NCBI RefSeq assembly: GCF_013167455.1 | Contig: NZ_CP038328.1 | Strand: one strand, 5' to 3' | DNA: 64,000 nt | Source: Escherichia coli O157:H7 | GTDB taxonomy: Bacteria; Pseudomonadota; Gammaproteobacteria; Enterobacterales; Enterobacteriaceae | In this document: one piece after another, positions 1 through 3,000 of the stretch | Layout: the number at the start of each line of letters is the position of its first letter | Numbering within the stretch: position 1 is the stretch's first letter | Program-made: the position numbers

Positions 1-3000
1 TGTTCGTCTGTTCCGTCGTAAGAACAAACTGCAACGTGAAATTCAGGACGTTGAGAAAAAGATCCGTGACAACCAGAAGCGCGTCCTGTTGCTGGACAAC
101 CTGAGCGATTACATCAAGCCAGGGATGAGCGTTGAAGCAATCCAGGGCATCATCGCCAGCATGAAAGGTGACTATGAAGATCGCGTTGACGATTACATCA
201 TCAAAAATGCCGAGCTCTCCAAAGAACGCCGCGATATCTCCAAAAAGCTGAAAGCTATGGGCGAAATGAAAAACGGCGAAGCGAAGTAATTCCTGTTTTA
301 TTCAATGAGGGTTGCCCGGCAACCCTCATTGCTCATTGATTCTTATCTGTGTATCACCGTCATCATTCTCATCTGAGAACCTATCGAAATTAGCGGCAGC
401 CTTCTTCTGTATGCAGCAAGGCAAAAAGTTCTGTAACTCCATTGTTATTAACCGCACTGGTTACTAACACGTTGTGCGCTCCAGCTTCCCGTAACCAACA
501 TTTCACCAAAGATATTTGTTCCATGCTGGCTAAATCTGCTTTGGTTACTACTCCAATGACCGGGTGATTCATGGCCCGGTAGGGCGTTTTTACCTCTAAT
601 TCCTGCTTCAGCGCTGAGATTCCTGCTTGTTGCCGGAAAAGCAGGCACCTGCCGTCTGAACGGTATCGATCCGGAAGCGTATCTGCGCCATATTCTGAGC
701 ATACTGCCGGAATGGCCCTCCAACCGTGTTGACGAACTCCTGCCATGGAACGTAGTTCTCACCAATAAATAAGCGTCAATACGGTGCTCCGTTGACGCTT
801 ACTTTAATCCGTTTTCTGAGCTTAGATTTTTCTGTTCCTACCCAGACCGTGGATTTGGAATTCATTTTTTGTCAGGTCAATGCTAATCGTTAAAACGGCC
901 ATAACGCACCTCCACTGGAAGGTTTATCAGTAATATCCTACCGTTGCTTCATGGTCGGGGCGTCCATTCCATTATTATCGGTTTTCCTTTCTGTTTATAA
1001 ATGAAAACGCCAGCTGTATTCAGGCTGGCGTCAGGGGAAATGAAGCCTGTTGAGTGAGATTCACCGGTTCTGGTGCAGAAGCTGCAGATGGCGCAGGGTA
1101 AGGGCATCTTCTCTTGCCTGCTTAATACAGGACAACAGTGCTGTTTCTGTGGTTAATGGCACTATACCCTGCATCACTGCATTGTCTTACAGCAACTGGT
1201 GAGGGCTGGCATAAGTTGCCGGTGTTTCGGTAGAGTCACGGTCATCCACCACGCGGAGTGAATAACCGTTTTCAGCGGCCTTATTAATCAGTTCAGTGAT
1301 ATTAACACCATCAATGTCAACGACAATGTGCCCCATATCCAGCGCCTGTACGTTAACGCTGTCGGCTTCCAGTGTCATCATTTCGCCTCCGGATACTTAC
1401 CCAGGGTAATGTTATTTACCGTTCTGTAATTGTCGCGGGTCATCAGGCCGGTCGCCCTGCGAGCCCGGAGGATATCGATGCTGTTTATTAACTGAGAGCG
1501 GGTACAGGCGCTGAATCCCGGCTGGTCGGTAGCACCAGCGCGTATTTTTCCACGAGAAAGTTCACCGCATCACACAGTGAAATGCCTGCCTCAATATGCT
1601 GCTCAATCACACGTTCATCGGCAAAAGGTGTGTCATTCAGTGTGAGGCCATAGTGCTGGTCCAGCAGTCGGGACAGCAGTATCTGCCAGATTTCAACAGG
1701 AGACGGGCGAGAACTGGCCGCCTGCCCGGGTAATACAGGTAATGTTTTCATACTGAAGATTTTCCTGATATGCAGATATAAAAATGGAAAAGTGGCGTGG
1801 TGAAAACACCAGGCCGTAGCAGAAGGCTATTCTGGAGAGTTAATTTTTCATTTCGGGCGTCGGATAAACAGCCAGATAAACGTAACCACAACTGCTGAGG
1901 GTATCGGCTTTGCAGGTCAGCCCTTTTGCATACAGCGTGACGGTATGCTGATGGCGGGGATTCAGTTCACCGCTGGTGAGCATGAGTTCCAGTTGTTTCA
2001 TCAGCAGCGGAAAGGCCTGGTCCGGGTGGTACGCATCTGCATCGCTGAACAGGCCTCTGATACCGGCGCGGTCGGCAAGGTAATGCAACCGGTTACCCTC
2101 CTGCACCAGACGTGCCCCGAAACAGGGCGTCACGGTGCAGGGCAGCCCCCACCAGGGGCGGTCGTGATTGTCGTCGGGAAGTGTTGTCCCGGGGAGTGTG
2201 TCTGACACGATAAAATCCTTACAGAAAATCGGCTAAGAATGGTCCGGTAGTGGCGATAATTCTGCTCATCAGAATTCCCACTCAGTTCAGGGTGACGCTC
2301 ATCAGCCGGACATACGGACCAAAACTGTCCTTACGGCGTTCAGCAAACACGGCCAGCACACCGGGAATATCCTGCACTTCACGACCGGTATACGCTTCAG
2401 CACTGCCGTGCCAGCGGTATTTACCGGTACAGAACGGAAAAAGACGGGATGTCGGATGTTGTTGGTGAATACGCATGGCTTCACCACGGGTGATAATTTT
2501 CATAATGGGATACCTCTGAAGACAGAAGATAAAAGTGAAAACAGGTGTGATGTGGTTGTGACGGGTTAAAGCAGACCATGTTCGGCAAAGGAGAAAACCT
2601 GGTTGCCACCGACTATCAGATGGTCCGGCACCCGGATATCCACCAGGCCCAGTGCCTGTACCAGACGTTCGGTGATAAGCCGGTCTGCCTTACTGGGTGT
2701 GACTTCACCGGACGGGTGATTGTGTGCCAGTACCACGGCAGCGGCATTGTGGTACAGGGCGCGTTTAATCACTTCCCGGGGATGGACTTCCGTGCGGTTG
2801 ATGGTGCCGGTGAAGAGGGTTTCACCGGCAATCAGCTGATTCTGGTTGTTCAGATACAGCACCCGGAACTCTTCACGCTCCAGTCCCGCCATGTTCAGAA
2901 TCAGCCATTCCCGTGCTGCACGGGTGGAGGTGAAGGCCACACCGGGTTCATGAAGATGGCGGTCCAGGGTTTTCAGGGCCCGTTGAATGAGGCTGCGCTC

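Follow-up and report, generated by a model that had tools for sequence, protein, structure and literature searches.

A frameshifted cbtA toxin gene beside a full-length cbeA antitoxin gene in the SpLE2 island of Escherichia coli O157:H7, an allele common in the species

The window analyzed here is a 64,000-nucleotide stretch of contig NZ_CP038328.1 of E. coli O157:H7 (RefSeq assembly GCF_013167455.1). Sequence comparison over 4.5 kb showed that positions 1 to 4500 match E. coli O157:H7 Sakai at 100% identity and span the end of yeeX/tmaR and the distal portion of the phage-like element SpLE2 (Table 1). SpLE2 is a P4-like island of O157:H7 and the counterpart, adjoining yeeX/tmaR, of the K-12 cryptic prophage CP4-44. 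Within this P4-like/CP4-type island the antitoxin gene cbeA lies directly upstream of the toxin gene cbtA, with yeeS and yeeT upstream of the pair and yeeW downstream. The yeeW gene is a truncated member of the DUF5983 genes, which at the paralogous loci are full-length at 492 nt. A promoter and terminator scan of the locus returned promoters at a level not above shuffle expectation.

Table 1. Features in the first 4.5 kb of the window
Feature	Positions	Strand	Basis
yeeX/tmaR, end	1-289	+	Sakai annotation
yeeW, 64 aa, truncated DUF5983 gene; ATG (1379-1381) shares ATGA with the original cbtA stop	1187-1381	-	ORFs; Sakai/EDL933 annotation
cbtA (yeeV) pseudogene, 374 nt vs 375	1378-1751	-	K-12 alignment; PGAP label in EDL933
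Residual cbtA ORF, 87 codons: CbtA residues 1-73, 14-aa tail, TAA at 1488-1490	1488-1751	-	ORF calls; PF06755; Sakai ECs_2806 yeeV
1-nt deletion: G of codon 74 CGT gone (C on + strand)	between 1531 and 1532	-	K-12 alignment
Out-of-frame remnant: CbtA residues 75-124 and TGA stop (1378-1380)	1378-1530	-	Translation; PF06755
cbeA-cbtA spacer, 88 nt, AGGA ribosome-binding site, same as K-12	1752-1839	-	K-12 alignment
cbeA (yeeU), full-length 122-aa ORF, GTG start; P62 codon 2023-2025, G108 codon 1885-1887	1840-2208	-	ORF; PF06154; Sakai ECs_2805
yeeT	2282-2503	-	ORFs; Sakai annotation
RadC-like yeeS	2566-3042	-	ORFs; Sakai annotation
Antirestriction gene	3057-3536	-	ORFs; Sakai annotation
DUF932 gene	3618-4439	-	ORFs; Sakai annotation

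The cbeA-cbtA module of K-12 MG1655 CP4-44 (yeeU-yeeV, b2004/b2005) shares with this locus the yeeX/tmaR site, the yeeS-yeeT-cbeA-cbtA-yeeW order, the 88-nt spacer, and the ATGA overlap, whereas the genes upstream of yeeS are yeeR and flu in K-12 but yfjX and yfjQ in this island. The two modules are identical at 844 of 847 aligned positions, and the three differences are one missing G in cbtA and two substitutions in cbeA. The missing G falls in codon 74 of cbtA, changing GTG CGT ACC to GTG C-T ACC; K-12 retains this G and encodes an intact 124-aa toxin. Translation of the three minus-strand frames yielded an 87-aa ORF in which residues 1 to 73 are the same as in K-12 CbtA and are followed by a 14-aa out-of-frame tail, while the C-terminal 50 residues of CbtA, ending in GKYPEAK, are encoded in a second frame whose stop overlaps the yeeW ATG. 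These results bear out the sequence-only reading of the locus, which had the frame ending after 87 codons at 1488-1490 and the conserved C terminus continuing in a second frame up to the ATGA overlap with yeeW; its 1-nt deletion near 1530 is now placed by the K-12 alignment. The Pfam CbtA_toxin model (PF06755) is likewise split over the two frames instead of matching one frame along its whole length, with positions 1 to 73 of 112 matching the 87-aa ORF (E = 1.4e-37) and positions 75 to 112 matching the second-frame fragment (E = 1.8e-13). Apart from a 21-aa ATG ORF, the second frame has no usable start codon, and it contains no ORF of at least 30 aa. An NCBIfam search gave no family for the 87-aa ORF, for the C-terminal fragment, or for CbeA and YeeW. 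The deletion context, GTGC[G]TACC, contains no homopolymer, and the site lies within the loop of a 6-bp inverted repeat (GCTGGT/ACCAGC) at 1521-1539.

We conclude that cbtA is here a pseudogene belonging to the CbtA/CbeA type IV family and is probably not functional. The frameshifted allele is already known, as the RefSeq pipeline PGAP flags the same 374-nt stretch in EDL933 (EDL933_RS15045) as "cbtA, frameshifted." In the older Sakai record, the 87-aa ORF is ECs_2806, described as "toxin of the YeeV-YeeU toxin-antitoxin system." The Sakai SpLE2 genes (ECs_2805/ECs_2806) and EDL933_RS15045 represent the same locus at 100% identity, and only the annotation differs, between toxin and pseudogene. 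A literature search on the locus tags ECs2806, Z3163, and Z3164 returned only unrelated papers.

The antitoxin gene had been described as intact, and this stands for the reading frame: CbeA is a full-length ORF that matches the Pfam CbeA_antitoxin model (PF06154) from end to end (positions 1 to 100 of 101, E = 1.1e-51), and it matches the YeeU structure in PDB entry 2H28 (E = 5e-83) with two residues different, which places it in the antitoxin family and fold. It does not hold without reservation for the protein sequence, in which P62 and G108 replace the L62 and D108 of K-12 CbeA. At residue 108, D is the K-12-specific state and G the general one. Residue 62, in contrast, is Leu in all four solved homologues (K-12 YeeU 2H28, Shigella 2INW, and YfjZ 2JN7 and 2EA9), and L62P is a derived, lineage-specific O157 change. 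In an AlphaFold2 model of O157 CbeA, built from a six-sequence alignment and of low confidence (pLDDT 56), residue 62 is the first in a single long helix (62-79), and proline is often tolerated at the first position of a helix. In a comparison of eight haplotypes, each of the six substitutions in yeeW-cbtA-cbeA changes an amino acid (yeeW N38K; cbtA A12T and R15H; cbeA P28L, L62P, and G108D), whereas none of the 10 in neighboring yeeS does (Fisher p = 1.2e-4 for the module, and 0.0035 when cbeA is taken by itself). This excess of nonsynonymous changes fits relaxed constraint on the whole yeeW-cbtA-cbeA module, although such an enrichment is also the expectation for young polymorphisms.

To determine the distribution of the allele, we counted exact matches of a 90-nt probe centered on the deletion in 5,426 complete E. 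coli genomes. The deleted cbtA allele was present in 1,486 records (about a quarter), compared with 1,761 for the corresponding 91-mer of the intact K-12 allele. In addition to O157:H7 and O55:H7, carriers include O103:H2 and O20:H12 strains, isolates from a chicken and a horse, and ATCC 11775, the type strain of the species; in these last five the same locus lies beside tmaR-yeeA-sbmC and is labeled "frameshifted" by PGAP. The P62 (O157-type) cbeA allele was found in only 324 records, leaving ~1,160 carriers of the deleted cbtA without it, and the frequency of the deletion is therefore not a sampling artifact of O157:H7. Core genes flanking the island differ by 0.85 to 1.6% among carriers, indicating that the chromosomal backgrounds of these strains have diverged. 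In strain 1916D6, cbtA is intact on an island haplotype that is near-identical, with eight differences in 4.2 kb relative to the O20:H12 carrier. These data indicate that the cbtA deletion is a common, species-wide polymorphism of E. coli and is not private to this genome. Decay of cbtA is also recurrent and continuing, since public protein collections contain numerous products that bear the same frameshift tail along with secondary deletions or fusions (P0006, P0014, P0017, P0019, P0039, and P0126), as well as an independent frameshift in the A5 run (P0012).

The sequence surrounding the deletion has a history distinct from that of the rest of the island. Between Sakai and other strains, the segment from 1105 to 2561, which comprises yeeW-cbtA-cbeA-yeeT, diverges by 0.07 to 0.27%, while its flanks in the same island diverge by 1.2 to 1.5% (Fisher p of ~1e-4 or less for each comparison with the segment). 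This roughly 10-fold lower divergence suggests that recombination, by homogenization or import, acted on ~1.5 kb around cbtA more recently than on the adjoining sequence, and such recent homogenization would make the lack of extra damage in cbtA compatible with its wide distribution. A second line of evidence comes from O55:H7 strains DEC5D and RM12579, in which the same deletion is present in the CbtA-family toxin gene that adjoins the LEE/selC island. There, the deletion sits within a tract of ~600 bp that is near-identical to the SpLE2 allele, and on both sides of it the sequence matches the divergent copy found beside the LEE in O157:H7. We infer that this O55:H7 paralogue acquired the dead allele by gene conversion, with the donor identified by sequence identity only. 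The allele would thus have passed not only from lineage to lineage but also from one paralogous locus to another, through recombination or gene conversion.

Three alternative accounts of the lesion can be weighed against these observations. Single-base indels are in principle a common type of sequencing or assembly error, and a homopolymer error behind an intact gene had been raised together with the original claim; we found nothing in support of it. The deletion is not at a homopolymer, the window is the same as Sakai over 4.5 kb, and a 1,101-nt query is matched at 100% in all of the 40 top matches listed, from independent O157:H7 assemblies that include Sakai and EDL933. Considering also that the exact deleted 90-mer recurs in many independent complete assemblies, we regard an artifact as practically out of the question. 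Programmed ribosomal frameshifting or transcriptional slippage could in principle yield a low level of full-length CbtA, and the perfect preservation of the C-terminal frame, still ending in the yeeW ATGA overlap, might be taken to favor it. However, recoding would require a -1 shift, and between the deletion and the stop there is neither an in-phase X XXY YYZ heptamer nor a homopolymer run, so that the frame junction has no slippery site in the right phase. The 3' part of cbtA is preserved because the whole 1.5-kb segment has barely diverged, and this leaves recoding with next to no plausibility. The original description had also called the deletion recent, and a recent origin confined to this strain, or to O157:H7 as a lineage, would agree with a cbtA that shows no further damage relative to K-12. 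That part of the description must be given up. The same locus carries the exact allele in O103:H2, O20:H12, ATCC 11775, and animal isolates, the ~1,160 carriers without the O157-type cbeA allele speak against a private event, as does the near-identical haplotype with intact cbtA in 1916D6, and we consider such an origin very improbable.

A separate question is whether the truncated toxin is dead. Loss of one G in codon 74 shifts the frame to give 73 native and 14 unrelated residues, and the C-terminal 50 of 124 CbtA residues are put beyond the reach of translation. The ribosome-binding site and start codon of cbtA are the same as in K-12, and with these signals intact the 87-aa peptide is probably translated. 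No solved structure was found in a PDB sequence search with intact CbtA. For intact CbtA, AlphaFold2 modeling (pLDDT 83, pTM 0.75) gives helices that span residues 18-34, 46-54, 59-70, 91-101, and 109-116; the last two, both confidently predicted, lie after the break and are hence lost. In agreement with this, T75-T84 in a published CbtA model forms the loop between helices 5 and 6 (H5-H6) (PMC8828653). Three of the seven near-invariant positions in a 26-sequence family alignment (D93, A97, and G102; IDILRARRATGL motif) are also in the lost part. The truncated product would then no longer inhibit the polymerization of both FtsZ and MreB, and from these sequence and model comparisons the toxin is most likely inactivated as a dual inhibitor.

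The 87-aa protein could instead be an attenuated but active toxin, for instance an inhibitor of FtsZ only, with cbeA retained against it. It keeps R15, needed for MreB binding, and F65, needed for FtsZ binding, substitution of which abolishes the respective interaction (PMC5624674), and a review attributes to Tan et al. 2011 an assignment of FtsZ binding to the N-terminal part of the protein (PMC3920263). The intact translation signals and an 87-codon ORF that runs without interruption in each of the six yeeX-adjacent carriers examined point in the same direction. Set against this are the loss of 40% of the protein, with three of its near-invariant positions and two of its predicted helices, and the two substitutions seen 5' of the deletion in alleles that carry it, both of which are nonsynonymous and one of which, R15H, alters a contact determinant. 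Moreover, public data hold secondary deletions and fusions of the deleted allele, and some carriers already have further amino acid changes in cbeA. Residual activity is therefore an unlikely reading in our judgment. We consider it highly probable that SpLE2 carries a type IV module in which cbtA is broken and cbeA is left as an orphan, through a common allele that has spread by recombination or conversion.

How cbeA could persist as an orphan antitoxin may follow from its mode of action. K-12 CbeA does not bind CbtA but stabilizes and bundles FtsZ and MreB polymers, and it also neutralizes other FtsZ inhibitors (PMC5624674). Because it acts on FtsZ and MreB instead of on the toxin, CbeA could serve a purpose, or at any rate do no harm, when its cognate partner is missing. 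[quoted passage not shown] The SpLE2 module resembles orphan antitoxins in general in having a dead toxin beside a retained antitoxin and several homologous systems in the same genome; it differs in that the type IV CbeA acts on the targets of the toxin, which would allow retention without a physical partner. The paralogous pairs YkfI/YafW, YpjF/YfjZ, and ECs_1405/1406, along with the toxin WP_000854712.1, share the Pfam families and the RadC-like, DUF987, DUF5983, and DUF957 flanking genes, and their toxins, whose protein sequences are 88 to 89% identical to that of K-12 CbtA, have the full 124 aa, unlike SpLE2 cbtA.

O157:H7 has three CbtA-family loci. At SpLE1 (ECs_1405/ECs_1406), toxin and antitoxin are both intact; at SpLE2 (ECs_2805/ECs_2806), the toxin is frameshifted and the antitoxin ORF is intact; and at the LEE-adjacent locus the arrangement is the reverse of that in SpLE2, with a whole toxin (WP_000854712.1, 124 aa, 89% identity to CbtA) and an antitoxin cut to 165 bp by ISEc31. 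With two live toxins and two live antitoxins, as judged by their ORFs, protection in trans by CbeA is possible, and SpLE2 CbeA could offset both of the intact CbtA-family toxins encoded elsewhere in this genome. In some carriers, such as the horse isolate, the 90-nt probe matched just once, yet cbeA is kept. Another CbtA-family toxin may be absent from these genomes, in which case protection in trans would not be the general reason for retention. A more specific proposal is that the SpLE2 orphan CbeA and the LEE-adjacent orphan toxin, whose own antitoxin was destroyed by ISEc31, form a split pair acting in trans; ISEc31 may equally have silenced that toxin, and we hold the proposal to be unlikely. 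If it were true, loss of SpLE2 would be penalized and SpLE2 and the LEE-adjacent island would be tied together, and the sister lineage O55:H7 would have settled the same conflict in another way, its orphan toxin gene being overwritten by the dead SpLE2 allele through gene conversion.

With nearly half of the exact-match CP4-44-type cbtA copies dead, the physiology described for K-12 CbtA should not be carried over to O157:H7 or to many other strains. The "toxin" label on the 87-aa Sakai ORF ECs_2806 likewise calls for care in toxin-antitoxin censuses. Together, the three-locus tally in O157:H7 and the putative gene conversion in O55:H7 provide a natural example of duplicated toxin-antitoxin modules that degenerate and exchange alleles.

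The LEE/selC-adjacent element of O157:H7 strain 9234 (locus L011, 3633-4261) carries a CbtA-family toxin that is intact at 124 aa, while the YeeU-family antitoxin beside it has been reduced to 165 bp through insertion of ISEc31. This module is the mirror image of that in SpLE2, with the toxin whole and the antitoxin broken. At the LEE-adjacent locus of O55:H7 strain DEC5D (L005, 3892-4518), the toxin gene has the same 1-nt deletion as SpLE2 cbtA. The deletion lies within a tract of about 600 bp in which the sequence is almost that of the SpLE2/CP4-44 allele, and on both sides of this tract it matches the O157 LEE-adjacent copy. 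The tract looks like the product of gene conversion with the pseudogene as the source. L005 3892-4518 is matched at an identity of at least 99% in only 4 records.

Within SpLE2, the yeeW-cbtA-cbeA-yeeT segment (window 1105-2561) is 0.07 to 0.27% diverged between O157 and other lineages, compared to 1.2 to 1.5%, or roughly 10-fold more, in the rest of the island (290-1104 and 2562-4500). The six substitutions that fall in yeeW, cbtA, or cbeA are without exception nonsynonymous, whereas the 10 that fall in yeeS are without exception synonymous. A 6-bp inverted repeat (GCTGGT ... ACCAGC; 1521-1539 on the plus strand), which a terminator scan scored as terminator-like on the antisense strand, has the base deleted from cbtA in its loop, and it is conceivable that the deletion was a hairpin-associated event. 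In the antitoxin, CbeA residue 62 (2023-2025) is Pro in the O157 type and Leu in K-12 YeeU, the Shigella homologue, and YfjZ. The exact O157-type cbeA allele is far rarer than the cbtA deletion (324 records versus 1,486). Pro62 may represent early decay of an orphan antitoxin or else a tolerated change where a helix begins.

The distal end of the island (390-1381) is a row of remnants, as it also is in K-12. Elsewhere in the window, four identical ALIL pseudoknots, the frameshift signal of IS629-type elements of the IS3 family, mark four IS copies in 64 kb. The region containing the sok RNA and the tRNA Met-Arg-Arg cluster is probably a lambdoid prophage, because both lie downstream of tRNA-Ser and the presumed integrase ORF. 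Between this putative prophage region and SpLE2 lie a 2,685-aa ORF and four genes for tRNA-Asn.

Features of the SpLE2 distal end and of the remaining window
Feature	Window position	Remark
EutP/PduV fragment (yoeF)	390-572	
IS66-family transposase, C-terminal piece	635-772	
DUF957 fragment	1061-1153	
yeeW		truncated, with 64 aa left; DUF5983 genes have 492 nt when full-length
ALIL pseudoknots	10991-11107, 22582-22698, 31426-31542, 60522-60638	
2,685-aa ORF	32963-41020	presumably yeeJ-like
tRNA-Ser	42326-42415	
340-aa ORF	42468-43490	presumably an integrase
sok antitoxin RNA	53355-53529	hok/sok type I module
tRNA cluster Met-Arg-Arg	56445-56694	

Many chimeric "proteins" in public protein sets are built on the deleted cbtA allele (P0006, P0014, P0017, P0019, P0039, and P0126), examples being an in-frame CbeA-CbtA fusion, a fusion of the YfjP GTPase to CbtA, and a CbtA-yoeF fusion. 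The same sets also contain a separate, independent cbtA frameshift in the A5 run at codons 68-69 (P0012). These entries stand as their own cluster representatives and make the CbtA family look more diverse than it really is.
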